Part shown: positions 23,599 through 60,469 of the stretch, one piece after another | How positions within the stretch are numbered: the stretch's first letter is position 1 | Layout: each line of letters starts with the position of its first letter | Source of the DNA: Marsupella aquatica | Lineage: Eukaryota; Plantae; Marchantiophyta | DNA: 64,000 nucleotides | Direction: 5' to 3' | Assembly (NCBI GenBank): GCA_973895155.1 | Contig: OZ316895.1 | Span: 8,730,184-8,794,183 of the forward strand | Made by a program: the position numbers and the translations under genes | The notes under the pieces: generated by a model | Seen by the model: only the letters and a program-made list of their open reading frames with translations | Databases searched by the model: none | What the model was told of the DNA's origin: nothing

Positions 23599-24756
23599 TG
23601 TCCGGGTGACCGTGTTTTCTGGCAATAGCATGTTGGCTCTTTTGAAGGTAACCTTGCATGCTTATAAGTTCTACACTAAAATCAAAATGATAATTCTAGT
23701 AACAAGGGTAGTGGGTATTAAGAAAGGTTCAGGTGAAACTAAAATACTATTAAACCCTATTTCACCATACTTGCGGACCAACACATCACGAAAATTAGTT
23801 TTCTTACGACATATGATCCTAATATCTCCAAGAGAAAATGAAACAGGAATATCATTCGGACTCCTATTCAGATCCATGACTTCAATAAAGGACAAAGATG
23901 ATGCACTCCCACTCCTCTCGGTACGACACCACTGGGTATATTATTGGCTCGTTAGAAACCATAACAGCAGTTGCAAACTGAGCTCCAAAATGATAGGTTA
24001 GATGTTGCCTCATAGATGGTTTGTCTAAAAGATGGACTCTAATCAAAAACGGATTACGAAGGGGAAGATCAGGGATAACTCTCTCTCCTGGATTCGTGAT
24101 GGCTCTTCTATTCCTTTGCTATCCGGGCCAAAGGACGCCCCACCCCTATATTCCCAAAGAAACCTTATTCCCTAAGGTCCCATCTATAAATCTACCACTC
24201 ATTCCTTTGCTATCCGGGCCAAAGGACGCCCCACTACTATGTTCAAGGCACAAAAGAGCTTCACAACCTTGAATGATAAACACTGCGGAATGAGGGGAGA
24301 GTGCCCCTCACCACTTTATTTATAGTGCACACCAAGAGGGCATGGATCAAGCCCAAGCACTTGGATGAAGGCCAAGTGTCAAACATCTAATACCTAAGAG
24401 TGTGCTAGTACTATTCATAGTTGGTGAAACTACTTTTAGTAGGTGGAACTACCATGCGTTGGTGGAACTACTATGCGTTGGTGGACCTACTATGCGTTGG
24501 TGGACCTACTGTGCATTGGTAGAACTACTATGCGCTGGTGGACCTACTGTGCGTTGGTAGAACCACTATGCGTTGGTGAATATTATTGTAGTTGGTGGAA
24601 CTACTCACATGCATTGGTGAAACTTCTATAGTCCGTTAATATAGCTAAAGAAGTTTAATAAAGTTTAAATTTAATAATCTAACTACTAAATTACTTATAT
24701 AATCTATAGCATATTAAAACAAACAATTTTTTATAACTTAAGAGAAAATCACGACA
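23599..24756 (-). repeat. 3' LTR of gypsy element
   Basis: Near-identical to 30897-32054 (about 7 substitutions seen by eye); contains an internal TTGGTGGAACTACTATGCG-type minisatellite. Confidence 0.97.
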
Positions 24757-24809
24757 CATCACCCCTACCAAACCTGTGCATCCTCCGGTATGCACCACAC
24801 CTAGAATCG

Positions 24810-27800
24810 CTACATGTCTTCTTCATCTAAAGCCTCATAGTCGTCGGGTTCAAACTCTTCCTCTGTCACAAATCGAGTTCGTCGTTTAAACAATTTCACT
24901 CGCTTCCCTGCATAGGGATTACGATGAATTGCTCCATCAAGTTCTCTTACCACATATGTTGCATTAGGACGAACCTCCTCCACCACAAATGGTCCTCTCC
25001 AACGACGTGCAAACTTCTTCAGAGTAGAATGTTGCTGTTCCAACCCTCCCTCATAGATCAAGACCCAATCTCCATTCTGGATGGGAATTGGTCTCAAACG
25101 ATGGGTCTTGTCAAATCGTTCCTTATTCTTCTCACGAGCCTCCTTTAGCCTTAGTAACGCCTCCTCAATCTTCTCTTTGGTCTGGCTAAAGTGCTCAATC
25201 CTTCGCTCCAGCAACGTTTCTCGGGAGATTCTATCTTGCCATTCAATCATCCTCCAACTCTGAACATTTTCCTCAATCGGCATCAAAGGCAAATGTCCAG
25301 AGACTAATTCGGCAGGCGTAATTCCTGTTGTGGTAGTGCATGTCATTCGATCTGCCAAAAGAGCAAATGGTAGAAGATTGGGCCAAAGTGATGGTTTTCC
25401 TCGGCAAGATTTCACCAAGGCATTCACTATCGATGGGTGCCCTCGCTCAATCTTTCCATTTCCTTCTGGGTTGTAGGCAGTAGTGAGTTTGAGCTTGATG
25501 TTGAACCGGTTGAAAAATTCTGCAGCCTCTTCAGAATTCAGCTCTCCTCTATCTGCTCTCATTTGCACAAAACAACCATGACGTGCTATAACGTCTTCAA
25601 GTATGAACCTGCATACTGCTTCTGTAGTGTTAGAGGTTAAAGCCCTTCCTTCAACATAAGAAGATAAATCTTCTCTTGCAAGGACAAGGTACTTTGCCCC
25701 CTAATTCCCCGTGGCATGTGCACCACATCTACTGCCCACTGAAAATGTAAAGAAAGAGGACTAGTGGGATTAAGTCCATCTCTAAACCGAACTTTAGAGT
25801 AATACTGACAACTCTCACAAGATCCAACATAGGATTTTACATCCACATACATGCCTGACCACCAGTACCACCTTTGAACCCGCTCATAGGTAGCTCTAAC
25901 TCCTCGATGTCCTGCTTCAACAGCATCATGAGAATCCCATAAGACTCTCTTCTTCTCTTCATCTGTATCAAGAAGTCTACAAGGAACATGTCCTTTCTTC
26001 AAAGACCTTCTCCATAAAACACCATCCTTGAGCATGAACTTGTAAGCCTTCTTCCGTAATTGTTGAAACTTCTCTTCTATCATTTCAATAGGCCTTTGAA
26101 GAGTACTAAGGTACCTTCCAATCAAGAGCAACTCTCCAGAATAGAGCTCCTCTCGAAATGTTAAGACCTCAAACTCTCCATTCATCACTTGAACTGCCTC
26201 CACTTCATTCTGATCATAGCGGGCTCTTGAAAGCATATCTGCTACTGGATTATCTTTTCTAGCAATGTGTCGAAGCTCGGGGTTGATCATCCTAATAAAA
26301 GCTATCCAACATAGCATAGCAATGTTTGGAGTATCACAGTTAGCAATCATCCCTAAAAGTGGTAAACAATCAGTCTCAATAATGACTTGTGCTCCAATCA
26401 AGTAGACTTTTTCTTGACACAAGGCTATCCTTGCTCCCCACAACTCTCGTTTGATTTGAGGGTAATGCCTTTGCCTTGCTGAAAAGATCTTAGCTCCAAA
26501 CCTTGCTGCAAATCTTCTCCCCTCCTCATCATCTTGCCCTACCGCCCATCTAGCAGCATCAGGACTTGAATCTACAGTGACAATGATGGGTCTTCCATCA
26601 TAGCATAAGGGACGTAAAACAATGGGGCTAAGTAAGGCCTCCTTTAACCTTTGCATAGCCTCCTTATGTGCCTCTGTCCAAACAAAGTGCACATTCTTCC
26701 TCAATAATCCGTACAAAGGATCAGCAATATGTGCAAAGTGAGGAATCCAGATCCTATAGAACAAGCAAGCGCCAAGGAACCTTCGCACCTCCGAAGTTGT
26801 CCTACAATCTTTCATCTGATTGATTGCATCTACTTTTCCTCCATTTGGCTTCCTCCCATCAACTCCACAAATTTGTCCTACAATTAGGACTTCACGAAGC
26901 CCAAATGAAGATTTTTCACCAGAAAGAGTGAGCCCAACCTCAATCAACCTCTTCAAGATTGCTTTCACATCTTGAATGTGCTCCCATACAAATTGTCGCA
27001 AACCATCTTCACGTATAGTCTCATCTTTCTTTGTCTCCAAGCATCCCTTGATTGGCATATCATCAAGGAATGGCTGTGTCTTCTCTGGAATGAAACAGTG
27101 TAATACCTTATTCATGGCATTCTGCATGTGAGCCACCGAGTTGGTTGCCCCTTGAGGCAAGGTACACATGCGAAGTAGCCCCAAAGGTGTCCTCATAGTG
27201 GTGATATCTCTACTACTCTGAGCCAACTGAAACTGATCATAGCCTGAATAGAGGTCACCACATGAATAGATGGCTCTACCAGCAAATTCTTCCGCAAACT
27301 CATCTACTATAGGTCCTATTCCAGTATTGCAAATAGTAACCTTGTTAGGTGGTTGCATGTCCTGAATAAATCTAAGTTTACCATTTTTCTTACGAATGGT
27401 AAACCAACGATTAGAATAAGGTGCATCTGTTCTTTCCAAAATCCTAGTGGAAAGCTTCTCCTTTAATAGATCAATAAGTTTAGGTAACAAAGCCTTGGGC
27501 ACTGGAATGGGTTTCAAGTCCCAAGGAACATGCGGGACAGTGAAAATTACCATAGGAGTAACAACACTAGGATCCACACATCCCATCTCTTCAGGACAAA
27601 AGGCAAAAGCCTTACCATGCTCACCAATCATTGCTGAAACTCTTCTCTCTCTTCTTTTGTCAGCAACCCATCATCACCAATCCTTAGTTGATTAAGGGTC
27701 TCCTTCGTGAATTTGTGGCCAATCTTAGTCCGATCTATAAGACTGGTCTCTTTACCTGCCTTCTCCAAAATCTCCCTAGCATCCAAAGGTAAAGGAATTG

Positions 27801-28143
27801 CTGCTGGTCTCACTTTCTTCTCCACTGTTTTGTACTTGGTGTTGACCTCAACAAATTGAGACAACTCGCCATACAGCTCATGATTGATTTCCATATGAGC
27901 TTTCCCCTCTGAAAGACCTTCAATTATTTCTTTCAAAGATACTTCTACTCCTTCTTCATCTAGAAGGCCTTCAATCTCTTCACTTTCCTCTAGCAATCCA
28001 TGTATTTGCATAGTATCCTCAATCCTTGCAATTTTCTTTTTGAATTTTTTAGTAGCTTCACACACTTTCACATAAGAAATTCGACAATGCAAGCTTTCAC
28101 CTTCAAATGAGCTTGCCAACAAACTATTCACATTCCAAGTCAC
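24810..28143 (-). CDS. pol: Gypsy pol (RT, RNase H, integrase), frameshifted
   Basis: LPQGATNS, PFLDD, VDSS..A, DCLPL, ADMLSR, GHRG...CESC, TTAYNPEGNGKIER, RWRGPF; split across ORFs 27628-28143, 25637-27631 and 24810-25568. Confidence 0.92.
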
Positions 28144-28184
28144 CAGCGGGTCATTGGCGATGGCGCCCCGCCTTCCCGCATTGC

Positions 28185-30827
28185 TTAACGAGACGCCTTC
28201 CGGAAATCCTCATTTCCCTCCTTGGGTTCAGGTCCTCTCAACTCCTTCCGATTCCTCCAATGTCCAGGTTTCACTACATGAAATTGGATAACCCGCAATT
28301 CATCCCGACTCCTTACCTTTGCCATATGAGTGCCATCTGGTAGGACCTTGTACTCCATTCGAGCTTGAGTAATGTAAGGCTGCCCTAGAATGAGATCATA
28401 GGGCAAGCTATCATGCACAAAGATGTTAGTTGGTTCTATCACATGGCCAACCTTCACTGATACTCCAGGGCATCCTCCCCAAAGCATATTCTTTGAACGA
28501 TTGATTGAGTTGACAGACCATTGAGTATCACAATCAATCATCCATTGCCCAAGATCATAGATGCTTCTTGACATTAGATTCACCTCAGATCCTGTGTCAA
28601 TCAATGCTCGAGCTTTGCCCTCCATTCCTACAAGCTCTACCTCCACAACTGAGCAAGTTCTTGCCCAAAACGGCTCCAAAATGGACTCCTTGCCGTCTCC
28701 TGAATCAGAATTCTTCATAGCTGAAGCACACATGACCCACACACTTTGTGAGGCCTTGAGCACCTCTTCACGACTAATTTTTGCCATATCCTGGGTCACT
28801 GCAAATCCTGTTGTTGCTTTCGCCAATGGTTTCCACCTCTCCAATACCTCAACTCCTGACATCTTTGGTTCAAGAACTTCCTTTGTTGAAGACCCTAGCA
28901 TCTGTGGTCTGGGGATCTTCTCCGCATTCACTTGATACACTTCACACTCCACACTGGCTTGAGAAACAATTGAACCTTCTCCATCTTCATCAACATCAGA
29001 AAAAACCTCCATTCCCAAGGCATGAGGTCCTTCCTTGTAAAATCGTTTTCGTTTCACCTTTGCAAGTAATGCATCTTGAGCCTTGGAGTTCATGCAAGCA
29101 AAAAACTCCTCATTGGTGACTCCGCTCACCTCCGCTTTCCAAAACTTCTCAGCAACTTGATCATACGCAATGTGTTGCTCAACATCTCTTCCAAGGACCC
29201 AACCAGGTCCTTTCTTTTCCACCTTCTCTTTTTTTACCACTTCCATCTCCTTTGAGGATGAAGGAGTCGAAGTAGGCTCCTTTGTTGTACTTCCTCTATC
29301 TTCAAATCGAACACTCTTCCTTGTTGGGACTCTTGATGATGGCTGCAAAATAGAGGGTCCAGGCTCAACCTTTTGTTTTCCTTTGGCACGTTCTTCCAAA
29401 GGTTCCGACGACTTTCGTTTCTCCTCTACCATAGAATCCCATAGCGATCCCACTTCTGCAGTGAAAGAAGAGATCAACACTGGATCACTCCAACCTGACT
29501 TCCTCCTTACAAACTCTGCTAGTCTCTTCTTGTCTGTCTCTGTTGACGAAGAACTCCCAAAGAGGGTGTAAACATCTGCTTCATGCTCATCCTGATCTCC
29601 AAAAGCTGCTGCAATGGCTGAAGTATGATGTCCAGTCATTCTTCTCTCCACCAACACCTTCATACCGCCCTTGTTTGTGTTTACTAGAATAAGCTCTCCT
29701 GAATCATGATAAGCAAGCTTTCTTATGCCATCATGATCAATGAACTTGACTATTCTCTCTCTCAGAGCAACAGAAAGCTCCCCACATTCACGCCTTGAGT
29801 GCTCCTTACTATCACACCAAATACAATTCCAACTCCTTGCTCCGCCAATGGAACTCCCGGCTCCTGGACCACCTCTTGACGCTGGTCTTGATGCACCTCC
29901 TCCCATCTGCTCGAAGGCTTGGGTGGCAAGAATGGTAAGATTTTTCATGAGTTTAGACAACTCATCTATTTTGTCCATGCTTTTCTCACCCCTACCAGTT
30001 GTTGACTCTATTTTCTCCATTCTCCTCATAGAAGTCACAGGTGCAACCGCATGTAGAGCACCTTCATGACTCAGCTTTTTTCTTCTATGCTTTTGGCTGA
30101 CCCTAAGCACAGCAATCTCAATCTCCTCCCAAGTTGGTGGACTGGCTCCACGACTTGGGTTCATCAATTCCAGAGCAAGCTCCAACTCGTCTTGAAGCTT
30201 CTCATCAGCAGCTCGGATAAGTAAAGTAGCCTTCTGTACCTTGATAACTTCAGAACCAATCTCAGGAAGCTGATTGAACTTCTTCGTAAACTCCCTTATC
30301 AGTTCTTGAGGTCCCAACTTCTTGCTTCTATCGGCCACCCAATCAAGGAAAGATGCTTGAGTAACCCGATCTGGATCTTCAAGCTAAAATTCTTCTTTCA
30401 TCTTCAACTCAAAGACCTTCCATGCTTTCTCCCCAGTAGCTCCATCTATCAAGGTAGTAACAATTCCCTTGAGTTCAGGTTCTACTAAAGATACAAACTC
30501 CTTGACTGCAACTTCTGCATCAATCTTATGAATTGTAGCCTCCGTCCAGTACCCCTTGAGATACTTGGTTACATTTCGCCCATCAAATTCTCCTTGCTTG
30601 GTAAGAACCGAGTGTAGGTACTTCGTGGTCCTACCAAGCAACTCCTTCTTCTTGTTCTCCTCCATCTCCTTCTCCTTCATTCCATGTAAGTAAGCAGCAA
30701 TCAAGGATGAAAACCTCTCCATGTCAGTTGGATTCATCTCAGTTCCCATGATTGCAATTCTTCCCTCTTGACTTAATAATATAAATAAGTTAAGAACTGA
30801 AAGTTCCAAAACCATATCTCTCTTCAT
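28185..30827 (-). CDS. gag: Gypsy gag-protease, one premature stop near 30384
   Basis: EFDGRNVTKYL capsid-like start, zinc knuckle CIWCDSKEHSRREC, aspartic protease ALIDTGSEVN and DLILGQP. Confidence 0.9.
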
Positions 30828-30896
30828 TCATTAGAACTCAAACATGCATAAGCTAACTTCCAAATCCAGCGGTATCCCCAGTATGGTCGCCACTTA

Positions 30897-32054
30897 TGTC
30901 CGGGTGACCGTGTTTTCTAGCAATAGCATGTTGGCTCTTTTGAAGTTAACCTTGCATGCTTATAAGTTCTACACTAAAATCAAAATGATAATTCTAGTAA
31001 CAAGGGTAGTGGGTATTAAGAAAGGTTTAGGTGAAACTAAAATACTGTTAAACCCTATTTCACCATACTTGCGGACCAACACATCACAAAAATTAGTTTT
31101 CTTACGACATATGATCCTAATATCTCCAAGAGAAAATGAAACAGGAATATCATTCGGACTCCTATTCAGATCCATGACTTCAATAAAGGACAAAGATGAT
31201 GCACTCCCACTCCTCTCGGTACGACACCACTGGGTATATTATTGGCTCGTTAGAAACCATAACAGCAGTTGCAAACTGAGCTCCAAAATGATAGGTTAGA
31301 TGTTGCCTCATAGATGGTTTGTCTAAAAGATGGACTCTAATCAAAAACGGATTACGAAGGGGAAGATCAGGGATAACTCTCTCTCCTGGATTCATGATGG
31401 CTCTTCTATTCCTTTGCTATCCGGGCCAAAGGACGCCCCACCCCTATATTCCCAAAGAAACCTTATTCCCTAAGGTCCCATCTATAAATCTACCACTCAT
31501 TCCTTTGCTATCCGGGCCAAAGGACGCCCCACTACTATGTTCAAGGCACAAAAGAGCTTCACAACCTTGAATGATAAACACTGCGGAGTGAGGGGAGAGT
31601 GCCCCTCACCACTTTATTTATAGTGCACACCAAGAGGGCATGGATCAAGCCCAAGCACTTGGATGAAGGCCAAGTGTCAAACATCTAATACCTAAGAGTG
31701 TGCTAGTACTATTCATAGTTGGTGAAACTACTTTTAGTAGGTGGAACTACCATGCGTTGGTGGAACTACTATGCGTTGGTGGACCTACTATGCGTTGGTG
31801 GACCTACTGTGCATTGGTAGAACTACTATGCGCTGGTGGACCTACTGTGCGTTGGTAGAACCACTATGCGTTGGTGAATATTATTGTAGTTGGTGGAACT
31901 ACTCACATGCATTGGTGAAACTTCTATAGTCCGTTAATATAGCTAAAGAAGTTTAATAAAGTTTAAATTTAATAATCTAACTACTAAATTACTTATATAA
32001 TCTATAGCATATTAAAACAAACAATTTTTTATAACTTAAGAGAAAATCACGACA
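30897..32054 (-). repeat. 5' LTR of gypsy element
   Basis: Direct repeat of 23599-24756; followed on the minus strand by the PBS at ~30875-30892. Confidence 0.97.
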
Positions 32055-32180
32055 CCGTGATATCAATGTATGCACGATGGTTTAGTGCTCTTAGCCCGAG
32101 TATTGCTTTTTCAGGTTCCTCCGAACAAAGGAGCCAAAGCCAACCAATCAAAGCGGAAAACAAAAAGAACCAAGAAATTT

Positions 32181-33799: not shown

Positions 33800-34290
33800 T
33801 GACTTTACGACGAAGACGCCCCACTGTCAAATCCATCCCACTGACTAAGACGCCCCCCGCCGAAGCCCAAATGGACAAAACCTATGGAATTTGAACACAA
33901 AAAACCCTTTTTCATGTATATGATTTGGACATTGTATTTAGATTTCACACTTGGAAAAAAAATTGTCCCTCCGACTTTATGAACACGCCCTCCGCCGAAG
34001 CCTGCCCAAATGGACAAAACCTATGGAGTCTCAACATAGAAATACCTTTTTCATGTATACACTTTGGATATTGTATTCAGATTTCACACTTGGAAAAAAT
34101 AAATTGTCCCTCCGACTTTACGAACACGCCCTCCGCTGAAGCCTGCCCAAATGGACAAAACCTATGGAGTTTCAACATAGAAATACCTTTTTCATGTATA
34201 CACTTTGCACGTTGTATTCATAATTCACAGTTACAAAAAAATTCATTCACTTGAACTTTACAAAGACAGTCGGGCCTAAATGGAAAAAAA
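33800..34290. repeat. ~120-bp degenerate tandem repeat (x3-4) between convergent genes
   Basis: Recurrent CCGACTTTA(T/C)GAACACGCCCTCCGC(C/T)GAAGCCTGCCCAAATGGACAAAACCTATGGA. Confidence 0.85.
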
Positions 34291-34738: not shown

Positions 34739-35309
34739 CTGCGCATTACAATAACACTAGAATAAGTAAACAAATTCTTATGAAACTAGGACTTTTATAT
34801 GGACCTTCAACACAGTGACGGACCAAACGAGAAGTGTGACCACACTTCTTGTTTTGCCCGCGGCGAAAAAAGTTTCTAAGGCAAAAAGTCCTGGATACGG
34901 AATTAGTATTCCCCCCTAAAACTAGTTTTTCGGTTTCAAAAAATGGGAAAAATCGAAGTGAATACGAAGATGGGATACGGCGTATCCCATTTCGGATCCA
35001 ACTCCGGAATTCCAAAAAAAAAAAACCAAACGTAGTAAAAGTGCCGATATTGTTTTACCTGTTAAGAATATTCCCAAACAATTCTTCTCAACAGTAACAT
35101 TTAACCGACTGCGCTGCAACTGCAGTCAAATACTAACCACGGTCAGGGAGAAAACTATAAATAGGAGATCCCTGCTTGAAATTTTTTTGCTCATTTCTTC
35201 TCGCTGTCTATCCTCTTCCTCTCAACGAATGCCCACCGTCTATACAAACTCGTATTCCCCGAAAATCAAATTTGACTAACAGGTGAGAATCTTCATGCAA
35301 ATGGCGAGG

Positions 35310-35765
35310 ACAAATCCCAAATGGGATACGGCGTATCCCGTTTGGGATTCAACCTTCAAATGTCCAATTTTTGTTTCTGTTTAGTTGAAAAAGGAGGTTG
35401 GATGCGAAGTGGGATACCCCTCTGAATATGAAGTATCTTAGCCTCCAACTGTCAAAACCTCAACGTTGAATGCGAAATGGGATACGGTGTATCCAGTTTG
35501 GGATTCGCCCTTCAAATATCCAGTTTTTGTTTCTCTTCAGTGAAAAAAGGATGTTGGATGCGAAGTGGGATACGGGGTATCCCATATCGCATCCAACCTC
35601 CGAATAATAAGTATCTTAGTCTCCAAATTGCAAAACCTCAATGTTGAATGCAAAATGGGATACGGCGTATCCAGTTTGGGATTCAACCTTCAAATGTCCA
35701 AATTTGGTTTCTCTTTAGCTAAAAAAGGAGGTTGGATGCGAAGTGGGATACGGCGTATCCCATGT
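35310..35765. repeat. Array 1 of ~45-bp palindromes (core TGGGATACnnnGTATCCCA), ~88-bp period
   Basis: Five full copies and one half copy, inside a predicted intron (GT at 35283, AG at 35828); one more copy at 34970-34990. Confidence 0.9.
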
Positions 35766-36464
35766 GGTATCTCCCTAGAGTTTTCTTGGCATGGGAAAAA
35801 TCTTATGAATTGCTGATTGTTTCGCAGGCAAAGTTCAACTAAACATGCACTGAAGCTCTTGCTGCCTTTCAGTGACTCAAGCTTTTGCTTTCCTGGAAAA
35901 ATGACATTTTCTCTTGTGAGTCTAATGGCGGTCCAGAATCAAAACCTTGAGAAACGTGCTCGTCGATTGTATAAGCGATTAGTTGCACTCAAAGTTCTCC
36001 GTCCTGGATTAGGAGTGCTATGGACGGGAGGCGTGGATCCACATGATAGTTTGAATCCACTCCGAATAGAGTTTTGTGAAAAAATGAAGACGGAGTTCCG
36101 ATTCGGTCGAGGATATGTTTGAGTGGTTGTCTGCACTCTGTTAATTCTTCTTGTAATTATTGTCGTGATGCCCGAAACAAATATCATCGATTAGCATATT
36201 TGTGTTGTCGGATTTGGAACGAAGATCCTTGGGTTAACTTATTGCGTTGAATCTTCTTGATTAGTGTGTAAGTATTCAGGTGAACGTTCTTGGGTCAAAA
36301 CTTTTGTGAATATATTTTTCTTTTGATCAAAGAAATAAAATCAGTTTTTCTATCACTGTTTTGTAGGTTGCTGAGAAAGTGCTCACCATCTCATTTATTA
36401 CTCCAGGTATCCACTCTTATTTTGGAATGGCCGTCACTGAGAACCCTGTCTTTACAGGTTAGCG

Positions 36465-36965
36465 ATGTCATTCGACATAGAGAAGAAACAAATTCAGCAG
36501 AAAAGTGGCCAAAGGGAATCCAGATTGCTTTTGGATGGACTTCCTGATGAGATTGTTGAAACGTTCATTTGACCCATTTTGAAAGTTTGTTGTATAGAGG
36601 ATGAATTTGATTCCTCCAAGAACCAAGCTGATGAAAGATTGATGCGATTAAAAACAATGGTGTGGCTTGGATGCACCTCCAAGAAATGGAACCAGCTCGT
36701 AATTTGTACACGAGTCTGGGGTATTCTTAGACTAGCAAGAAGCCAGTTTGAGGAAGAAAATGAAATGCTGACAAGCATTCCCGATGGAAAACCCCTTCAG
36801 AATGTTCATATTGAAGCTTCTGTTAGGATGGAAACACCAAATCTTCCTCCAATCGATTTCTTAGGTTTATTTTCAAGGTCTGACCTAAATCGATTTCAAG
36901 AACACTGGCACAATCTTGAGAAAGATGAGCAAGCAAGGCTCTTGGAAATGTATGGGGAAGCTTAG
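36465..36965 (+). pseudogene. F-box-like protein with one premature stop (36570-36572)
   Basis: MSFDIEKK...LLLDGLPDEIVETFI*PIL...LGCTSKKWNQLV fits the F-box pattern LP.EI...I...L...V(C/S)K.W; TGA is likely derived from TGG. Confidence 0.55.
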
Positions 36966-37249
36966 AGCTTTATTTTGTGGCACAATTCTGGATGAATAAA
37001 GAGTTTTGTGATTCTACCCTTACATCAACCCCATTCGCTAAGCGTAAAATCTATTTGGTTTAATCCAGGGACGTGGGGATATGCCTCTCAAGTCCTCTCA
37101 AGCGAAAAAAGTATAAATAAACCTCTGGACTCCAACCCTCCGCTTTTGGATTCACCTTATCGCCTGTGTATACGAAGGTGATAAAGTATAAATAGCAGTG
37201 CCTGGTTAGAAAGTGCACGCTCATTTCTTTTCCTTCTCAACTTCTCCTT

Positions 37250-37866
37250 GCCGTATCCTCCTTTGCATTCAACTCTATTCTTTGCACTTCTGTTCAAAGA
37301 ACATAACTTTTCAATGTTGAATACGAGATGGGATACCGCGTATCCCATCTCGCATCCAACACCCTCTTCTTAGTATTCCATCGGAACCTCCTGGCTGTTT
37401 GTTGACTTTGAATACAAAATGGGATACCGCGTATCCCATTTCGGATTCAACTACATCTCTCTGGTCTTTTATTGCAGAGTACTAGAAATTCCTGATGTTT
37501 AGGGTTTAGCGCCTTTGCGGAGGATCATTGCAAAAAGAGCCGCATTGGATGATGTTGGATACGAACCGGGATACCCCGTATCCCATTTCGCATTCAACTT
37601 TCTATTTTTTGTTCTTTGCATCAGACTAGGGAATTGTTGACGTTGGATGCAAAGTGGGATACCTCGTATCCCATTTCAAATTCAATTCCCTATTTTTTGT
37701 GTTTTGTATCAGACTCGAGGCAATTGTTGAAGTTGGATGCAATGTGGGATACCGCGTATCCCATTTCGCATTCAACTCCCTATTTTTCATTCTTTGCATC
37801 AGACTCTCGGCAGTTGTTGATTTTGGATGCGAAGTGGGATACTGCGTACCCGATCTCGCATTCAAC
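37250..37866. repeat. Array 2 of ~45-bp palindromes upstream of the ParB-MTase start codon
   Basis: Six full copies, e.g. 37316-37360 GTTGAATACGAGATGGGATAC-CGC-GTATCCCATCTCGCATCCAAC. They lie between a TATA box (~37187) and the acceptor TTTACAG at 37911. Confidence 0.92.
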
Positions 37867-37915
37867 TACTTTTGTATGTTTACGCCCTGGTTCTGTGTCA
37901 ATCTTTTACAGGAAC

Positions 37916-40900
37916 ATGTCGAACAAATCAAAGTCGTCTGGTTCGACCGAATCTTCACGGACGTCTATCGTCGATGAGATTTGGAAGAAGGACCTTTACA
38001 CCGAGGAGAAACTCGTGAGGAATAGGTGGTACTTCAGGGATGCCCGGGCGATGGATATTCACAGAGCCTATGACGGTCCAGCGGTGTGGTTGGTTATAGT
38101 TAAGGGTAAAGACCATTGCCATTATGGATTAGTCGTGGACACTGGGGAGGCAGATATCACCGACGCAAAAACCAAACAGCTGAAGAAGATTCTAATGTAC
38201 CTTTGCATTCTTCCGAACAATGCCTTCACTGTAGTTGTCCTCAACTACGAGAAACTCGATCGGGTCTCGATGAACACATTTCCTGATGACCCGATCTGCA
38301 AGCTAATTTCGGACAAAGATTGATGACTTTTCTTATTGGTGTTTGAAATTTGTCTTGAAGTCTTGGAGGGTTGTTGAGGAACTTACCAAGGTAGCATATA
38401 GGTCCGTCATTGGAGCCAACTTTGGCGTCAAAGAGCGTCCTCTGAAGTTGAAAGTGACGAAGCCTACCGATCCGGCTTCGAAGTCAGGGGAGATGTCTAG
38501 AACACCCTCGATAAAGGAGAAATCTGCCATAGTTTCTTTTAAGGAACCGGCAAAAGGAAGCTTGCAGATCAACTCTCCGGGGAAGGTTCTAAAGCAGCGG
38601 TGTCAGGAGAAGCTGCTGGCAAGAAGAAATTGGATCGACGTGACATCCAGAAGCGCGCACCATCTGCACCCGGAAGTGTTGTCTCATCTTTGGTCCCAAC
38701 AATTTCACAAACACCATCTCAGATTCCTTCAACTTCATCAGGTGGGCCTTCTCTATCATCTAGGGGTGTTGTGAAAGAAAAGAAAAACGATTCAACAGAT
38801 ATCACCACAGCTTTGCAGCGGGAAGAGACACTTGTGGTTCATGAAGAAGTGTCTCGGTTGATGGAGACCAAGAGAGTTCAGAAGACAATTGTTATTCTGA
38901 AAACAACTAACCTGCTTCTTGTTGACGATATTGACGACAAGAACTCAACTTTGGTTCGAACAGTAGATCGGTTGCATGTGGAGAACATCAAGACTTTGAT
39001 GAAAATGAATCCAACAAATTTCACCACGCCATTTGTCTTGTTTGTGATCCCCAAAGACTGCCCGACAGTGACAGATTGGGACCCAGAAAAGGCAACAAGC
39101 TGGAGATATCGAGTGATTGGAGGTAATCACGGTGCTCGGGCTAAGAGAGAATTGTATCAGGCTTATGGGAGAGAGATCTTCAATGAACTCCAAGCTTGGG
39201 TGTATGCTGGTCTCACAAGGGAGGACATTCAGAAACTTAGCATCCAACATAATATTGATCAGGAGTACAGGAAAAAAATGAACAACATTGATCAAATCCG
39301 AACAATGCATAAGATTTTCCTTGCCAGAGGTATGGCAAAAACCAAGGAGACTAGAGAAGCATGTGCGATGGAGGTTTGCCTCGACGGGTTTTTTCCGGGG
39401 GACGCCACAAGCCTAAAGAAGCATGAACCTCTCTTCCAAATTGCGTTTAGGTCGGGTAAGGTCTGGGAACTCCAAGACCAGATCTTTGAGATGTGGAACA
39501 AGTTGGAGATCAAAGGGCAGAATAAGTAGAAGTCATCGATCAAGAAACTCAAGAAAAAAGGAAAAGCGCAGTCGATTCCAAAAGCTTTGAATAAGCTTGC
39601 AGGGGGCCTTACCCTGACACCTTGGAGAGCAATCCAGGGAATTGAACACGACCAATTTTTGGAGTCCCTTCTTCTACGAGTGAAGGACCGGATGATCTCT
39701 TTGGAGCAGATGGCAAAAGAAGCCAAGAGTTACAAGAAACTTGTGAAAATCAGCAAGCTTTTTGTTCAGTTATCAGGGCAGCCACACTGGGCGACTTGCA
39801 AATAAATGTTTCCAAAAGAAATAGAATCTGCCGAGCTCGAAAGATGGAGTGGGAAGTTGTCCGATGTGGTATGTTCTCCCCTTCCATTGATTGGACTTTT
39901 CTCGGATTCACTTGTGTTTATTTGATGTTTGTGATGTTTCAATGAGGTTTTGCTTGGTCGAATGCAAAGTGGGATACGGCGTATCCCATCTCGGATTCAA
40001 TTGTGTTTATTTGACGTTTGTGATGTTTCAATGAGGTTTTTGCTTGGTCGAATGCGAAGTTGGATACGCGGTATCCCATCTCGGATTCACTTGTGGTTAT
40101 TTGACGTTGGTGATGTACCAATGTGGTTTTTACTTGGTCGAATGCAAAGTGGGATATGCGGTATCCCATCTCGGATTCACTTGTGTTTATTTGATGTTGG
40201 TGATGTTTCAATGTTGTTTTTGCTTGGTTGAATGCGAAGTGGGATACGGGGTATCCCATCACGGATTCAATTGTGGTTATTTGACGACGATGATGTTTGA
40301 ATGGGGTTTTTGTTTGGTTGAATGCGAAGTGGGATATAGGGTATTCCATGTCGCATTTGTCGTCCAGATTTGATTGTTTAAATGCCCAAATGGTTCTCCC
40401 CATTGTCTTTTCTCTGGATTCCTTTAACAAGTTTGCGTTTGCAGTTGAAAACTTTTTCGAAGAAGAAGAACAATGATGCAATTGGTGCCGATGCGGTTGA
40501 GAAGCCTTCGGAGGAGCTGACTTCGAGTGTTATTCCCCGGGGTTTAAGAATTATGTTCAAGAAGCGATTGAGAACTACAACCGTCATCGTGGGATTGAAA
40601 CGGTTGAAGCAGAGTCGAGTGACCATCGATGGAAAAATGCTGATGGAAATTTCATCAGATATACATTGCATTGTGGAGATGTCAAGGCGCTGGATAAGTT
40701 TGTAGAGAAAAGGAATTACACACTTGCAATTGGAGACATTCCCTATGGATTCAATGCGCTTGGCTCCAAAAATGATGAGGTCCCATTTTCAGAGAGTGAT
40801 ATTGTGGATATGGTGAAGTGTTTTGCCAAGGTGACAAGTTCAAAGATGTGGAGGTTTGTTGTGATTCACTCTTTGCAGCAAACTTGGTCTGTGATGAATG

Positions 40901-41538
40901 CCCTGGGAAAAACTTGTAATGCAGGTGTAGAGGCTGGAATTTGGGAGAAGCCAAATGTACATGCTCATCCTTCGGGGAATCGATTGGCTTGGGCTTTTAA
41001 AAACTGGTCAATCGGATATTATCACGAGAGTGGTATTAGGACCAGAGACATGTACAATTTTGAACATGATGAGAAAAGGGTAAACATCATAAAAGTCCCT
41101 TATGTTACAAAGAAATGTGTAACACCATTGGGGGAAATAGTGAACCCTTACCAGAAGCCGATAGCTCTAGCAGATTGGTTCATTCAACATTTTAGTGAAG
41201 CAGGGGATTGGGTTGCTAATTTATGTGCGGGGAGTGGTTCGACCTCATGCGCTGCCTTGTTAGGGAAACGTCCGGTGACAGCCGTGGAGCTCAGTTCAAG
41301 CCAGGTGGATTGTATCCGGACCCGACTTGTCACGCTGGATGAATCGTGGGACTTGAATGATGAAGCAACAGAGGAGGGTACAGGACCCATAAGCTTCAAG
41401 GTTCAACCACCTATTGGTGGTACTATGAGCACCCTGACCACTGGAACTTGCATCATTACAACCGCGGAGGAGAACAACAATGATGAGGATAAAGAGGATG
41501 AAGTGGAACATGAAGCTCCGACACTTGATCTTGGCTAG
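37916..41538 (+). pseudogene. ParB/Srx-like domain fused to a beta-class (N6-adenine/N4-cytosine) DNA methyltransferase
   Basis: ParB-like RTVDRLHV...PFVLFV...YRVIGGNHG...QAWVY in ORF 38600-39529. Intron 39869-40444 (phase 0). MTase LHCGD, motif IV-like LAIGDIPYG, then YQKPIAL..WFIQHFS..GDWVANLCAGSGST..AAL.GKR...VEL (motifs X-I-II), i.e. beta order. Lesions: frameshifts at ~38317, ~38580 and ~40535, stops at 39527 and 39803. Confidence 0.85.
39900..40360. repeat. Array 3 of ~45-bp palindromes (89-90-bp tandem units x5) inside the ParB-MTase intron
   Basis: GTCGAATGC(A/G)AAGTGGGATACGGCGTATCCCATCTCGGATTCA(A/C) repeated at ~39957, 40047, 40137, 40227 and 40317. Confidence 0.93.
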
Positions 41539-41665
41539 TTCCTTGAGGTGTAGACTTTAGTTTAATTAGTTCTCTCATGTTGTATCTATTGATCCAAACT
41601 TGTGAAATATTGAGGAAGATTATGATTGGACTATGTTCTTATTTCACAAAGTAATATCTTTGCAG

Positions 41666-42576
41666 GAACCAAAGGAGGATTTTTTATTGAAACATGTTCT
41701 GCATAGATTCTCACACAATCCTTCTAGTGGGTTTCTTTTGGACAATAAAATATTGAGCCAACTTGAACCCGGTCAATATTTGGGTGATGAAATAATGGAA
41801 TTTTACCCACAATTAATAACCGAGGAACATGGAGATCTGGCTCCCTCAGTAAACACATTATCCTCTTTTTTTTACCCTTGGCTTATTTCAAGGACTGAAA
41901 CAGAACCAGCTGAGACCTTGTTGGAATCAATTCAAAAGATGCAGAATTATTACAAGCCACCATTTTCCCAAATTGAGGTCATTCTCATGCCAATTCACAT
42001 GAACATGCACTGGAGTCTGGTTGTAATATGTTTGGATCGGATTGAATCTTCGATCAAAATGTATCATCTAGACTCTCTTGCCGGTCTATACTCAACCCAT
42101 GTAATTGGATCAATACTGAGCAGGTATGTATATATTCTATTATATTTTTTCCATTTTAAATTATTTATGTGGTATATAAATATAAACACTTTGGACTAAG
42201 AACTTGAATGATAATATGCAGATATTTTACAATGGAATGAGAATTATTTTTTGGAAAAGTTCCAATGGGAGTTGTGGAGATTTACAATCCAATGGTAAGG
42301 ATTTGAAAAGTTATTTCAACTTTTATTTAGTTCAATTATTAAACACTTTGGACTAACTTTAAGATTCTTTCTCAGGTACCTCAACAACCAAACAATTCAG
42401 ATTGTGGTCTATTTGTTCTTCAAAATATGGATGAAATCAGAATTCAATGGCATATTACACAATGCCTTGATGCACAGTCTTTATTTACCAAAAAATGGTA
42501 CAACTCTAAAAGAGCATGTAACCTTAGAAAATTCATTCGAGATCAAATTCTAAAATTGATGCATGTACCTGTTTAA
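41666..42576 (+). pseudogene. Ulp1/SENP (peptidase C48) SUMO-protease domain, three exons; probably the C-terminus of the ParB-MTase gene
   Basis: LEPGQYLGDEIMEFY, LSSFFY, ILMPIHMNMHWSL (His), YHLDSL (Asp), VPQQPNNSDCGLFVL (Gln/Cys). Exons 41666-42123, 42222-42294 (stop plus frameshift) and 42376-42576. Confidence 0.88.
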
Positions 42577-42587
42577 GGACATCAATC

Positions 42588-45500
42588 TCAATCCTTTGAG
42601 TGTGCAGAACCTCGCTCTAATATAGCAGACTCTATAATTTTTTTAGTTTTTGCTGCTATTTGATTAGTACTTAAAAGCGCAAAGTTGTATGCATACACCG
42701 CTGTTGATGATAGAACTAGTTCATCTTGGAGAAGTCAATTAGATATATTATCTTTCTCTGAAAAATATTTCCCATCAATAGCAGACTCAGCACTTGCCTC
42801 AGTTGTGTACCATGTGATTTTGATTCTCTCAGGAATGTCTGCAGTTCTTGTCAAAATCTTTGACACCTTTGCCATCCAAAACAACTTGCCTTCTGGATCC
42901 TTGTGTGCCGCTACACATATCATGGACCACTTATTGTTAACTTCCATATCTCTAAAATCTCCAAATTCAGCTTGCTTTCGTCGAGGTCCGGAGTACATAA
43001 TTCTCTGTGGTCCAGCAACTTTGTCAACCAAAGTTGGATCAACACCTTCTTCAACAAGTTCATTTCCCACCCTTGGAAGTAGTTGTGCACCTTGATTTTG
43101 TTGCGGCCAAACCCACTCAAATAACCACTCACCTTCCTCTAGGTGGTTTTTGATAATATCTTTTTGTTTCTCAAAAAAACTCATCCATCAAAGTTTGTCT
43201 TCATTGTCAAAGTAATTGAAACCTTCCTGAATAGTTTTTTCATATTTCACCAGAGTAGTTAACGCACCATCTGTATTGGAAGAATCATGGACATCATCCC
43301 TCTCAACACCTTTTGCTGACTTCAGTGACATTTGTGCAGCAACCCACATTCTTGAAGTTGGAATGTAATTGACAAATGTCACTGCATCTCCCCAATCCTG
43401 GGTCGTGAAAAGATATTTCACGTGGAATGTTGTCTCTTCGTTTCCATCCTCCATGACTCGTTTGAATCTGAATTGTCTTTGAAAAGTTATGAGATTGAGA
43501 TCTCTCAAGACTCTACCTGAGACTCCCTTCTCATTTGGCTGGTCGGTTTCATTGACAAATTTTCAAAAACCGGCTACTTCATCCATAAATATGATCAAAG
43601 CTTCAGGTGAATATGCTTGTCGAATAATATCCTCAAGAGTCTCCAAGCGAAATGCTTTGTGCTTGTTTAACCTAGATGAAAATTTACTAAACATCTTATC
43701 TATCTGGTCATGTGTATGACCGACCAACAAGAAACCCACTTTAATCTTGTCAAAAATCTTCAAATCTACTAACATGTGAAGATAAGCCATCAAGAATTTA
43801 TTATTGTTTCCCTAGTGCTATTATCTAATTGAAGATATAACACTCTTGGTAATGTCCCATCCCATGTATTCAATACATTTTGAATAACATGTATGGTCAA
43901 GTTTGCATCATTATGGATATTGTGATATGTCAAAAATACTTTTGCTGCAAGGTTCCTGTTGAAGATGAGACAACCTACAACATGTATTGGAATGAAATAT
44001 TTTTCATCCATGTTCTTCGGACAATGAAGAAAATGTGGTAGCTCTGTTTTCTTTTGATCCATACCATCTATACAAATACCCAAATACTTGTTGGGCTCAT
44101 CATAGCATTTTTTACGATGCTTGGCTAACTTCATCCTTTCCAATGATTGTACTTTTTGATGCTCCATAAGGGCATTGATTTACTTTCCTGAAATGATACA
44201 ATAGCAATGAATTAAAAATCAATAACTAAGGATAAACTTTGACAAATATTGAAGTACATGTCATCAAATTAAAGTTGAAGGTTATAGTTAGTGGAATTTA
44301 CTTTTATCCTCTTCAGTTGTTGCTTTGTCCCGAAGAGCCTTGAATTCAGTACAAGGACCACAAGTAGAAAATCGACTCCTTTTAGGAATTCGTACATTTG
44401 GAAACTTTTTTTCCAAACATGCAAAAAATAAGAATATGTAACTTGTTGTTCTTCTCGCAACATTGTTTCAGCTTCAAAGATTCCATGTATCTCTTGCTTT
44501 GTCCAATTGTCTGGCAAGTGATGAATCTCTTTATGGGGAAGACTATCCATATTTTTTTCGAAAAAATCTTTCAACCATTCCACTAGGTTTAGAAATGAAG
44601 GTGAGTCTTCCTTACAAAAGGTATCTCGTTCAATCCTTGTAAACATGTTTGCATGGATTGTTGTCAATCTATTATTACCTAAAGAATATAGTTTCTTGAA
44701 TCCTCCTCTACATATAGGTTGTCCATTTACACTATATCCACGAGAAGTACTACTACTGTTCATGATACAACCTCGTAGCAAAATATTTTTCTGCAAGTGT
44801 TTAAGACCAAAATAATACTTGCGTTGTTTTGAGCATTCCTTTAGACCCAGAGACCTCAAGCAAAACTTGTCACAACAGGGATACTTAAAAATATCTGTAA
44901 TTTTGCGTTTTTTTAGATTTGCAATGGTAAGTCTATCTTTTCTAATCATCTGATCTCTGATTTTTTTGCTGGGTCTTGTCACCTCTACTCTATCCTGAAT
45001 AGTGTCGGGAGAACTTACCCCCCCACTATTTTCTAGTGAATTAGAATTCAAAACAAAAAGATCTTCTGTAGAGTTGTTTCCACTCTCCACATTTTCTGTA
45101 ACTGTTTCATGAACAATCTCACATCCCAGGATCTCTTCAACAATATTTGAGATTATAGCAGTCTCTCTATCATTTGCAGCCGCCTCTGATCTCTCTTCAG
45201 AGTCTTCAGAAAATGTAATAGGTGTTCGGAGATTTCTAGTTTGAAATCTTCTAATGATATTCACATCTTCAGTCACAATACCGCCCACTTGTCTCTAAGA
45301 CTGTAATCCCAGCCTAGGTGATTCTTCTCGACTTGAGGGCTCATCTTGACCATTAAATAATCTTTGGACAAGTTTCAATTTAGCATGTGCCCTTGAATTT
45401 TTGGGCCCTCTCTCCGGCAGCTCACTTCACAACAATCTCCAAGGAATTTTCTGGACACTAGATCTCTTCCCTCTTTCGTTCTGCACTTGCCGTCCAATGG

Positions 45501-46453
45501 AAGATCCAAAAACCTCACACTGCATCCTCGCCAAAGGGCTTCGAAGCCCCATGTTGTTAGTTTGACCATTCGGTGAAATAACCGATGGGAATACCGATTG
45601 GGATCCATGGATCCCAACTCGTATTCGTCCTTCGGGACTTTGAAGTGAAAACTTTCATAACAGTAAGTGGGAAAGTAAGTGGGAAAGTAAGTGGGAACTG
45701 GGATCCACGTATCTCATTTCGCATTCCATCATCGGAACTCGGGTTGGAAGTCCGCAAGACCAGTGACTCGGGCACAGGATTCTGCAAAATACCACGAGGG
45801 AATACTAAGTGGGATCCATGGATCCCACTTCGTATTTGACCCATGAAATTGGTACTGAAGGAGACGAAGTAGGCAATTTGCATTCACCGTTTCTCAACAT
45901 TCGAGTAGGGAATACCAAGTGGCACGGATCCCACTTGGTATTTGACCCACCAAATTTGGCTTTGAGGCTGCCCCTCCCTGCAATTCCGGCACATTCGGAC
46001 TCCTCATTCGCTCAAACTGTGATTGAACACTGGACACAGCTATCTTCACTCCCGGAGAACGAGACATTGGAAAAACCAACGGAGATCTTCGGGCCTACAT
46101 GGTAACGTTGTTCTTGGCATTAAAAACTGGGGTCTTCGTCTTTGAAGATCTGTCGGGGTTCGCGGAGAACCAGGTGTCTCTGTCGTAGGAACTACATTAG
46201 GCTTCTTTACAAGTAGACGTCGTTTAAGAGGTTTACTTGGAGAGACATAGTATGAAATCGGAGCACCCACAACACTCCTACAAGACTTTGAATCGGACTC
46301 TGATTTCTCAGATTCCGAGGAAAATGAAATCTCTAGCACTACTCTCTGTGAGGCTGGTAATTCATTCATCAAACGAGATGGAATAAATTTTCGAACAACA
46401 TCTGGCAAAGATGCATCTGAACTGTAAATTGACTCATCACTTGAAGATGCCAT
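42588..46453 (-). pseudogene. Sola-like / DUF7869-type DDD transposase, spliced and frameshifted
   Basis: Cys clusters CCDKFCL, ICRGGFKKLY, FSTCGPC; catalytic motifs GICIDGMDQ, LYLQLDNSTRE, FLLVGHTHDQID. Probable first exon MASSSDES at 46453; stop at 42588-42590. Confidence 0.85.
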
Positions 46454-46992
46454 AGATAATCAAACAAGGGTTGTATAGGAGTACGTATTCCTATCCAACA
46501 GAGATACTTCAGATTATAGTATTCTATGAAAACAACTACTCAATAGTGAACGAACCTCAAAGTAATCGCGAGAAATGACGATGAAAAACAAATGCGAGCT
46601 CTTCCTTTTATAGTTTTTGGGGGCATTGTACACGTGGCATTCCCTGATTGGTCCGTACAAGGGTTTTTTCAAGTGAGAGTCTGTCTTTTCCAGGACTGCT
46701 GAAATTTAAATTGTAGATTTTCGAGGAAGTCGCCGTGGATCCGAGTTGGTCTTCAAACTGGAATATCAAGGTATGCGATGCAAAAACTTCAAAATGTAGA
46801 GGTTAAATACTAGATCCCATCTAGTATTCATCCTCCTATTTTCCCGATGAGTTTTTAGACTTGCAAAAAAAATGGGATCCATGGATCTCAGTTGGTATTC
46901 ATGTCGAAAGATCTCCTGATGCAAAGTTGCAGGTGGAAAACATTGAGGTTGAATACGAGAGTGGATACTTGGATCCCGTCTCGTATTCATCA
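45585..46992. repeat. Variant palindrome family (core TGGGATCCATGGATCCCA) around the transposase 5' region
   Basis: Copies at ~45589-45626, 45801-45836 (perfect 24-bp AAGTGGGATCCATGGATCCCACTT), 45911-45942, ~46800-46830, ~46872-46900 and ~46948-46990, with the same GAATAC...GTATTC outer arms as arrays 1-3. Confidence 0.8.
46606..46651 (-). promoter_or_regulatory. Putative Pol II promoter of the transposase (CCAAT, G-box, TATA)
   Basis: On the minus strand: CCAAT (46651-46647), GCCACGTG (46638-46631) and TATAAAA (46612-46606), in order, ~150 bp before the ATG at 46453. Confidence 0.45.
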
Positions 46993-47590
46993 TGCGTTAT
47001 GGGCTAAAAAAATTCCAAACATGTTGTCAGGTTAACTTAACTAATTGTGTGGATCGACTGTAGTCCGCGGTTAGTTTTTCGCAGTTTTTCGGTTTACCGC
47101 AGTTAAAATTTCAAATATTTTTAACCCGAGGTTAAATGGAAGCGTCAAGAGAATGATTTGGTGCGGTTTTGTCAACAGTTGAATCCGAAATGGGATACGC
47201 CGTATCCCATTTTCAGTTTGCCATTTTGAAGGCGAAAATGAAATCTTGTGTTTTCTTCATTTTGTTTGACTCTCGGATTTAGCTTTTAGAGGATCACGTG
47301 AAAAGCATTGTTTTTCTAGGTTTTGGAATTTGCCCTTTTTTTAGATGTAGTGTATCGGAATTCTGGATTGTAACAATTCTTTGTTTTTGTGTCGACAGTA
47401 TCTCAATTTGAAATCCGATGTTGGATGCGATTTTGGATTCATCCTCAAAATAGCGTTTTTGATCTTAATTTTAGTGATTTTTTGCCATTTTTCGCGAAAT
47501 CAAAAACACACTTCTCGTTTGGTGGTCATACTTCTTGTTTGGTCCGTCACTGTGTTCTTCTTTGTCTTGCAACATTATAACATTTGGTAC

Positions 47591-56385: not shown

Positions 56386-56792
56386 GGTCTCAACTGTCCG
56401 TATGCTAGACGGTTACATTTTTGAAATAAAGTTTTGTGTGTTATTTTTGGTCTATAAGACATTACTCCTTTTCATCCTCCAAATGTCTGGGTTTTGCATT
56501 TGGAGATGTATGGCAGTGTATGATGTACGTTGTACCATTGACTGGTCAATGACCAAGCACCTCACTGATTATAGCAAGTCTGTTATGATGTTGCTGCCTG
56601 CAGTGAGCAGATGATACGTGAGCAGGTCGGGCGCCAGCACAGAGCGGACTTGATAGTGAGTGTACACCGTGTCTGTGATATTTCCTTCATGAAACTTGCA
56701 TGTGTCCCTCCATGTACTTAGAATATGCAATTGTATAAGCCTGTCTAGTGCAAAGGGTACATAGCCAAGGTGTGCCTACGACAGTTGAAGGT

Positions 56793-59700: not shown

Positions 59701-60469
59701 ATTGTATTGAGAAATTGTTCTCATTGTCATCATTGTATGCAGGGAATATAATGTGCAGAAGGCCGCCCAATTAGGGTTAAATCACCAGGCATTCCCTACT
59801 TTTCCTGAGTGGATCAGGACAACAATTCAAGAGCATAGCAGGCAGAACCCAAACATGGATAGAGATGTTCTCCTCTTGTCTGTGCCTCCCAGACGTATTG
59901 TACAGCGGTATAAACGGATGAAAGCATATGGGAATCAGTACCGTGTGCATGATGATGAGGACAAGCATTTAGTGACATATAATTTGGGGGTAATATCTGT
60001 GTTTGAGCATATAGATGCTCAGAACAACAGGGGCTGCATGGAGATAGGATATGTCGGGGAGTTGGCAGACATCTGGGCACTGAATTATGGGAACACAACA
60101 CAACAAATCATCCTAATGAAAGGTTCATGGGTGAAGCCAGATTGGCATGGGCCAAGAGCAACCATGAAACGGGATATGTATGGCTTTCTAATGGTCAATT
60201 TTAACCAAAGACTGGCAGAATGGATGGAGCCTTTTGTGTTCCCAAGTCAAGTTGAGCAAGTGTTTTTTTTAGATGTGGAGGAGTCTCGTGGTTGGCGTGT
60301 AGTCTGCCATAGCTCACCTAGAGTTCGAAGGATGGAGGGTACTAAAATAGAGTTCAGTTTGGATGCACATGGGGCCTTTGAACCACTAGTAGAAAATGGG
60401 GCCTTTTATGACTATGACACATATGACTTATGTGCCCAAATGACAATATATGTCAATGACAGGACATGA
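56793..60469 (+). pseudogene. CACTA TnpD/Tnp2-type transposase, one premature stop (58458-58460), two introns
   Basis: RCPC...HL..HG, IHACPDGHVLF...CPICG, LRHFPLIPRLQRLY, RFGLSLDGANPFG, SSWPV, YNLPPW, DVMHIEKNV, KTHDFH, WMYPMERYM, EPFVFPSQVEQVFF. Confidence 0.93.

Follow-up and report, generated by a model that had tools for sequence, protein, structure and literature searches.

Family-specific palindrome arrays around a ParB-like methylase gene in a liverwort DNA transposon: candidate sites of VANC-like self-recognition

In the VANDAL transposons of Arabidopsis, the targets of VANC occur as diverging arrays of tandem repeats in introns and elsewhere in non-coding sequence, according to the accessible text of two reports (PMC5735166, PMC10398659). 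Here, we describe a comparable arrangement in a 64,000-nucleotide stretch of the liverwort Marsupella aquatica (assembly GCA_973895155.1, contig OZ316895.1, positions 8,730,184 to 8,794,183; called the window below), where a 12,748-bp multicopy DNA transposon with terminal inverted repeats (TIRs), at 34809..47556, carries palindrome arrays and a gene for a ParB-like DNA methylase. The likeness to VANDAL elements, as far as the accessible text goes, lies in family-specific tandem arrays within introns, between genes and in non-coding parts at the termini, which differ among families and expand and contract. VANDALs, in contrast, are Mutator-like, and VANC targets are asymmetric and 8-9 bp long, whereas the present element has a DUF7869 transposase, a 4-bp target-site duplication (TSD) and bipartite palindromes of 38-39 bp; further, the putative reader here combines a ParB-like protein with an enzyme that writes on DNA, and function, shown for VANC (PMC5735166, PMC10398659), is a proposal for the present sites. 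VANDAL membership itself was rejected on the basis of (i) the DUF7869 transposase, (ii) the 35-bp TIR and (iii) the 4-bp TSD. A Pfam scan of 17 open reading frames (ORFs) in and beside the element named no VANC, VANC sequence or profile itself not being part of this comparison.

Two further groups of described systems share features with this locus. In the available text of a recent preprint, Spm TnpA and the AtMu1 transposase are associated with clusters of family-specific motifs that fall into classes mirroring the element tree, as here; there, however, the motifs are terminal and accompanied by hypomethylation, and the binder is transposase-derived, whereas the arrays of the liverwort element lie mostly deep in cargo introns (10.64898/2026.08.24.746577). 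The ParB/parS, Noc/NBS and KorB/operator systems (7bm8, 6t1f, 7nfu, 8qa9) resemble it in a ParB N-domain followed by a helical domain and in clustered palindromic cores of 16-17 bp, and differ in that the element has GGNH for GxxR, about 50 extra basic residues, a C-terminal methylase, a eukaryotic intron-containing gene, an extra outer AAT element in its sites and no ParA among the 17 ORFs scanned. The replaced CTP arginine motif and the lack of ParA led us to reject a strict parS system. The original prediction had offered parS-like or VANC-like target sites: conserved, transposon-tied sites on double-stranded DNA and a VANC-like logic withstood the analysis, the latter being supported by the family-specific cores found in related elements, and parS in the strict sense did not.

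The 17-bp core GGGATAC-NNN-GTATCCC had 18 matches in the window (at most two mismatches) against 0.05 expected, a count reached by none of 100 shuffles; this confirms that the palindrome arrays are real. The full palindrome of this type (A1) is a unit of 45 bp. Three arrays hold 16 of the 18 and two are singles, so that the three arrays and two singles of the original prediction stand, while its total, which counted about 18 copies in the arrays with the singles added, does not. One single (34958..35002, unstranded) lies about 150 bp inward of the left end and the other (47178..47222, unstranded) 334 bp inward of the right end. Array 1 (35309..35775), with five palindromes and one broken unit (35397), has steps of 88 or 90 bp and a 178-bp dimer, and falls within a predicted intron (35283-35827); introns throughout are predictions from GT..AG signals and homology. 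Array 2 (37316..37866) has six palindromes in steps of 88-91 bp, with one step of 147, and occupies the region from a TATA-like box to an ATG at 37916; a half-site at 37252-37273 is whole in other copies of the element, and an acceptor AG is found at 37911, its donor not placed. Array 3 (39957..40361), five palindromes with a 90-bp step, is inside the predicted intron between the ParB-like and methylase exons. Between arrays, motif identity is 0.80 and spacer identity 0.29 (85 pairs), which bears out the claim that the palindrome is kept while the intervening sequence differs. All 18 sites are inside the element, with none in the window's other 51,302 bases, and the half-sites are each conserved independently, as expected for protein contacts on double-stranded DNA.

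A second site type with the same outer GAAT, A2 (GGGATCC-NN-GGATCCC), had been overlooked. Three of its five sites (GAATAC-N5-GGGATCC-NN-GGATCCC; 45589..45837) stand immediately upstream of the predicted transposase ATG, with related half-sites to about 45956, and two (46863..46988) upstream of a minus-strand TATA-like box at 46612. The A2 core contains GGATCC twice and has the 2-bp spacer seen in classes B and C of related elements (below). An element with two site types may be chimeric or may use two readers.

Relatives were obtained by scanning metagenome contigs with the methylase alignment, which yielded 10 loci: six close ones (L009-L014, 50-57% methylase identity), all from one metagenome, and four distant ones (27-34%). 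All six close loci carry recurrent palindromes, none of them of the window's class. Class A has 18 sites in the element and none in the 10 loci; class B, GCGA[GT]AC-NN-GTCTCGC, has 39 sites, confined to L009, L010, L012, L013 and L014; and the asymmetric class C, CCGATCC-AA-ACATCGG, has 20 sites in both orientations, confined to L011. The classes are thus mutually exclusive by locus. Across them a half-site frame is shared (AAT at -17..-15 and GA at -5,-4), with family-specific positions at -7,-6,-3,-2 and a spacer of either 2 or 3 bp. In the first array of L010 (207-409), hybrid units combine a left half of class B with a right half near the window's class A core, and are possible intermediates in site evolution.

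Homology-defined coding sequence makes up 62% of the loci with class B or C, and none of the 59 sites of these classes falls in it. In all six elements that span it (the window and L009-L013), the ParB-methylase intron is unchanged in position and phase and contains an array; the placement of arrays in predicted introns and 5' regions, this intron included, is therefore upheld in the window, and the intron is conserved in all five spanning relatives. L010 and L011 have arrays ahead of the first exon as well. In relatives, an array is found as well in a second intron, absent from the window, and after the methylase, where the window has a Ulp1 gene; sites just downstream of the methylase occur in six relatives, and in the three that extend to the transposase this place is its 3' end. 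One site of L014 is inside a transposase intron.

A fourth palindrome, CGAGATAG-NNN-CTATCTCG, recurs in the distant locus L018 (27% methylase identity), where it stands at four sites, all of them non-coding and two in predicted introns. None of 500 shuffles reached this, an optimistic figure since the pattern was drawn from the locus itself; a pattern-free test gave one pair, against none in 40 shuffles. The presence of palindromes at 27% identity suggests that the trait accompanies the methylase gene far out. The L018 gene (210-1411), a distant intron-containing methylase, reads DSNY for DIPY and has its own palindromes in and around it. Viral contigs scanned with the methylase alignment and with the L014 transposase yielded no relatives, and the palindrome pattern matched them at eight single, unclustered places, which we took as chance. 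A search of genome contigs returned six partial matches of 21-61 residues to ordinary bacterial methylases.

The candidate reader is encoded directly beside array 3. The ParB-like exon (38543..39868, + strand) comprises a ParB/Srx N-domain with GGNH, a helical DNA-binding-like domain and a basic linker; it has two in-frame stops in the window copy and is 45-47% identical to its counterparts in L009-L013. An AlphaFold2 model of the stop-free L011 exon (predicted local distance difference test, pLDDT, 87.8) had ParB, Noc and KorB as its top fold matches (Foldseek E=6e-5). The N-domain aligned to ParB with Z 11.5 and a root-mean-square deviation (rmsd) of 2.1 Å over 99 residues, confirming that the domain upstream of the methylase folds like ParB, and the N-domain and helical domain together aligned in order to 203 of the 209 KorB residues, with Z 9.9 and an rmsd of 4.3 Å. 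A model of two copies of the exon as a dimer scored 0.16, and a sequence search of the PDB with the ParB alignment gave no matches. At the position of the CTP motif, the window, L010, L011 and L012 read GGNHGARA.

The predicted phase-0 GT..AG intron that follows (39869..40444, +) leads to a methylase exon (40445..41538, +) of the beta-class N4-cytosine/N6-adenine type, with DIPY, NPYQKP and motif I in that order. Its PF01555 match (E=3e-5, 24.5 bits) is just under the 26.7 cut-off, which homologs exceed. D[IVL]PYG is present in 18 of 19 alignment rows, the other being truncated, with NPYQKP and motif I downstream; the precedence of motif IV over the S-adenosylmethionine-binding motif I is the beta-class order. 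At the motif I position the window copy has N, and 17 of 18 homologs have D. A frameshift near 40534 in the window copy is absent from other copies, which are in frame. ParB-like and PF01555 domains share one chain in six of the 34 homologs scanned, such one-chain proteins being annotated in Chara, Riccia and Ginkgo; splicing across array 3 is thereby supported. Homologs of the cargo are named from Chara braunii, Riccia sorocarpa, Ginkgo biloba and Adiantum nelumboides; seven proteins from these genera (P0054, P0090, P0166, P0073, P0069, P0085 and P0075), annotated as hypothetical, are ParB-like or ParB-methylase proteins, and P0054 carries the module twice. Identity of the putative recognition region falls from 70-89% within class B to 30-59% between site classes.

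The methylase also matched phage DNA methyltransferase PHROGs (E=7e-15), and Atlas matches at 0.86-0.87, which we treat as leads, are phage ParB-methylase fusions. In the main text on ParB-terminase loci, phage fusions of ParB with N6/N4 methylases likewise join a ParB N-domain to a beta-class methylase (PMC4738411), the difference being that the present fusion is in a streptophyte-type transposon; such phage fusions are the likely ancestral source. The eukaryotic ParB-HTH-fused clade in that main text is chlorophyte Dam, a different methylase group, and the same text, supplement aside, describes no land-plant clade like the present ParB-methylase (PMC4738411). Other prokaryotic-type beta-class methylases in eukaryotic nuclei are, in the accessible descriptions, MpDN4MT1 (10.1101/2021.02.12.428880) and the rotifer N4CMT (8s9m). 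These are host genes, with TSPPY in MpDN4MT1, whereas the liverwort gene has DIPY and a ParB fusion and resides in a transposon; its match to 8s9m was weak (E=0.007, 69 residues). A literature search, with Repbase, subscription journals and supplements outside its scope, found no paper on a ParB-methylase transposon or on such arrays. Fungal transposons reported to carry TET/JBP enzymes are a parallel.

The transposon is delimited by a left TIR (34809..34843, +), which contains no palindrome half-site, and a right TIR (47522..47556, -), both of 35 bp and 94% identical, and by the 4-bp TSD CTTC (34805..34808, second copy 47557-47560). Copies and insertion state were assessed in contigs of four public runs (X1-X4), which cover all 30 bins of the element. 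An empty-site joint (34804->47557, four shared letters) occurs in X1 and X2, nine X1 contigs have unlike flanks ahead of 34809, and several contig joints gain or lose array units from copy to copy; the element is therefore a multicopy family with elastic arrays. It is inserted into a MULE-like gene, whose SWIM domain is found in the right flank. Contig depth is up to two to three times higher at 34757-35670 and 47096-47552 in X2-X4, and internal deletion joints exist (e.g., 38056->40909), a combination that suggests non-autonomous derivatives retaining the terminal sites.

The element is Sola-like, and DUF7869 presumably corresponds to Sola. The string CACAGTG, identical to the RAG/Transib heptamer, is present in both TIRs (34811-34817 and 47548-47554) and lies two bases in from either end; true ends two bases outward of it are indicated by the 4-bp TSD together with the empty site. 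Three aspartate motifs, a candidate DDD triad, were spotted by eye in the transposases of the window and L014. As in Sola, the element has TIRs and a 4-bp TSD, and the accessible text on that group also offers three aspartate motifs, a size range that includes the present element and reports from mosses; large cargo and arrays are undescribed there, and the likeness is one of features (PMC10741241, PMC3845634).

Pattern matches to TATA-like boxes at 35156+, 37187+ and 46612- point to three transcription units, all of which have sites at the front. The first box (35156..35164, +) and array 1 precede a broken ORF with a weak F-box-like stretch (36495..36965, +; Pfam F-box E=0.4, below cut-off and thus a lead only), which would be a third cargo gene. 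The second (37187..37195, +) serves the ParB-methylase unit, and L010 has the same TATA-array-ATG order. A putative fast-evolving N-terminal domain follows (37916..38474, +), frameshifted in the window copy, 25% identical to that of L010 and 22-39% identical among three families; it had no fold match (low-confidence model, pLDDT 59), no Atlas match and no family match, and no longer homologs were found for it or for the methylase. Downstream of the methylase lies a Ulp1 (Peptidase C48) gene with introns and without palindromes (41606..42576, +; E=2.7e-12). A Ulp1 gene is a feature of VANDALs as well. L009, L012 and L014, the three relatives whose loci run from methylase to transposase, lack Ulp1 at the matching place, which is occupied by a short palindrome-bearing spacer, suggesting later capture of the gene. 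The DUF7869 transposase (42735..45552, -) has stops and a frameshift in the window copy and no internal palindromes; an intact relative is found in L014 (E=4e-50).

Elsewhere in the window, the MULE-like host element contains a 141-bp tandem repeat (33816-34241). An LTR retrotransposon at 23599-32055, with long gag/pol-like ORFs on the minus strand, has 1159-bp LTRs that are 99.4% identical, indicating a recent insertion. A gene-like region is duplicated (2476-6489 and 11243-14974, 77-83% identical), and a 408-bp tandem repeat of about five copies (61168-63521) lies beyond transposase-like ORFs at 56739-60466.

With the arrays masked, the observed/expected (o/e) CpG ratio was 0.70 across 34809-41538 and 0.91 across 45295-47556, the array-bearing parts. 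The array-free Ulp1-transposase stretch has 0.34, and 500-bp bins of the flanking elements range from 0.14 to 0.74. The CpG rate ratio between array-bearing and array-free parts is 2.2 (p=1e-6). This contrast is weakly consistent with long-term protection from 5-methylcytosine (5mC) near the arrays.

Judged from the sequence, the palindromes are very probably protein sites for some factor that the element encodes. That they are docking sites for its own ParB-like methylase, used in self-marking and escape from silencing, we consider an evenly balanced proposition. Under this proposal, the ParB-like and methylase exons would be spliced into a one-chain protein that would bind the palindromes as a dimer, its helical domain reading the variable inner 7 bp and its basic linker the constant AAT about one turn outward. 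The methylase would mark nearby DNA with N6-methyladenine (6mA) or N4-methylcytosine (4mC), and marking would keep the family active against 5mC silencing by the host; slippage would lengthen and shorten the arrays and raise the local density of sites, as with the targets of VANC. A more elaborate version, in which a phage-type ParB-methylase has been made into a private epigenetic system that loads on its own arrays, spreads and writes 6mA or 4mC that blocks 5mC, with co-diverging specificities, is possible, if somewhat doubtful.

Several observations weigh against docking by the ParB-like methylase. The helical domain on its own matched ParB weakly (Z 5.7 and 3.9). CTP-binding ParBs have a GxxRxxA motif with an arginine, which the sequence here replaces with GGNH. 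The element has two site types, A1 and A2, and one ParB gene, and the window copies of the N-terminal, ParB, methylase and transposase genes are broken by stops and frameshifts. Three of the four distant methylase loci (L015-L017; 1.4-1.7 kb) have no recurrent palindrome. There are only three to four site classes, with L009-L014 from one metagenome, and site class follows the methylase tree, so that the matching divergence may be plain inheritance rather than co-evolution. Within the methylase exon, CpG o/e at codon 3|1 is 0.28, as low as in neighboring transposons, and a high CpG content of promoters and termini may have other causes. Finally, a transposase is an equally good fit for the sites close to the two ends, for those of relatives at the 3' end of the transposase and for the one in the L014 transposase intron.

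A transposase reader is, in our judgment, somewhat unlikely. In such a scheme the sites would be end-pairing helpers of the subterminal type and would also serve the transposase as a sequence-specific activator of its own family, with the ParB-methylase a passenger or a recruited effector. The singles 150 and 334 bp inside the ends would suit it, as would the A2 sites immediately ahead of the transposase ATG and, among relatives, the L014 site in the transposase intron and the sites downstream of the methylase in six loci (the transposase 3' end in three); moreover, transposases acting as sequence-specific activators with family-specific motif clusters are described in the available preprint text (10.64898/2026.08.24.746577). 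The TIR, however, is without a half-site, palindromes also accompany the distant L018 methylase, and most sites are 0.5-5.5 kb from an end and surround the cargo, whereas TnpA targets in the same text are confined to the termini (10.64898/2026.08.24.746577). If instead the ParB-like protein bound the sites as a KorB-type repressor limiting expression of the element, with methylation reinforcing or incidental, the course of the arrays from TATA-like boxes to start codons would be explained, and KorB is the fullest-length fold match; we nevertheless regard this as improbable, because CpG is kept, not lost, near the arrays, and because family-wise turnover of cores is the expectation for silencing escape, as in the accessible account of VANC (PMC10398659). 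Reading by the N-terminal domain (37916-38474) or by a host factor, rather than by the ParB part, appears more improbable still: that domain is the fastest to diverge (22-39%), as a domain that sets specificity might be, but has no fold or family match, and a host factor is not expected to track different cores in families of one metagenome.

We give very little credence to the units being intronic RNA hairpins, or a tiny independent repeat of the MITE or satellite kind spreading in non-coding DNA. Five of the eight units tested do fold well as RNA (z -3.7 to -8.4); the other three fold poorly, and Rfam gave no match to the units. The original prediction had reported co-varying arms, and single copies look symmetric, yet paired positions numbered 282 against 284.6 in permutations (p=0.76), or 227 against 224.0 within arrays (p=0.18), and for class B the within-locus value was p=0.50 (0.024 with loci pooled). 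Arms without co-variation above chance make RNA hairpins unlikely, and the hairpin alternative raised at the outset was dropped for want of compensatory base-pair changes. With class C units standing in both orientations within one intron, this favors DNA rather than RNA; spacers of 2 nt and the asymmetry of the class C cores point the same way. As for an independent repeat, summed contig depth on the palindrome (a 276-bp stretch) was 7.7, 7.6, 12.2 and 14.2 times the element's median bin, contig depth being no copy number, and stays within the 18 sites per element copy. Relative to the adjacent flank, palindrome depth was 5.6-7.5 times higher in X1/X2 and 36-54 times in X3/X4, the latter excess being what an independent repeat could produce; it may reflect sister subfamilies or outside copies. 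Loose ends that could be placed by eye mostly match the element's other arrays, and no copy lies outside the element in 51 kb.

Read as docking sites for the ParB-like methylase, the palindromes would belong to a transposon self-recognition of the VANC kind that is new in its transposase, in its long palindromic sites and in having a ParB-methylase in the place of VANC. Proof of sequence-specific self-protection by transposons comes mainly from Arabidopsis, where the way in which VANC lifts silencing is an open question. The liverwort element shows the same array logic in an unrelated group of transposons, and its candidate binder has a known fold and is joined to an enzyme that writes on DNA, which makes the mechanism directly testable. 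If the proposal is true, a transposon of a plant lineage would be writing a non-canonical DNA mark of its own, and would be a possible origin of 6mA or 4mC in the genomes of streptophytes; the natural series of protein-site pairs, with at least four cores, would lend itself to the study of specificity evolution or to targeted epigenome marking.

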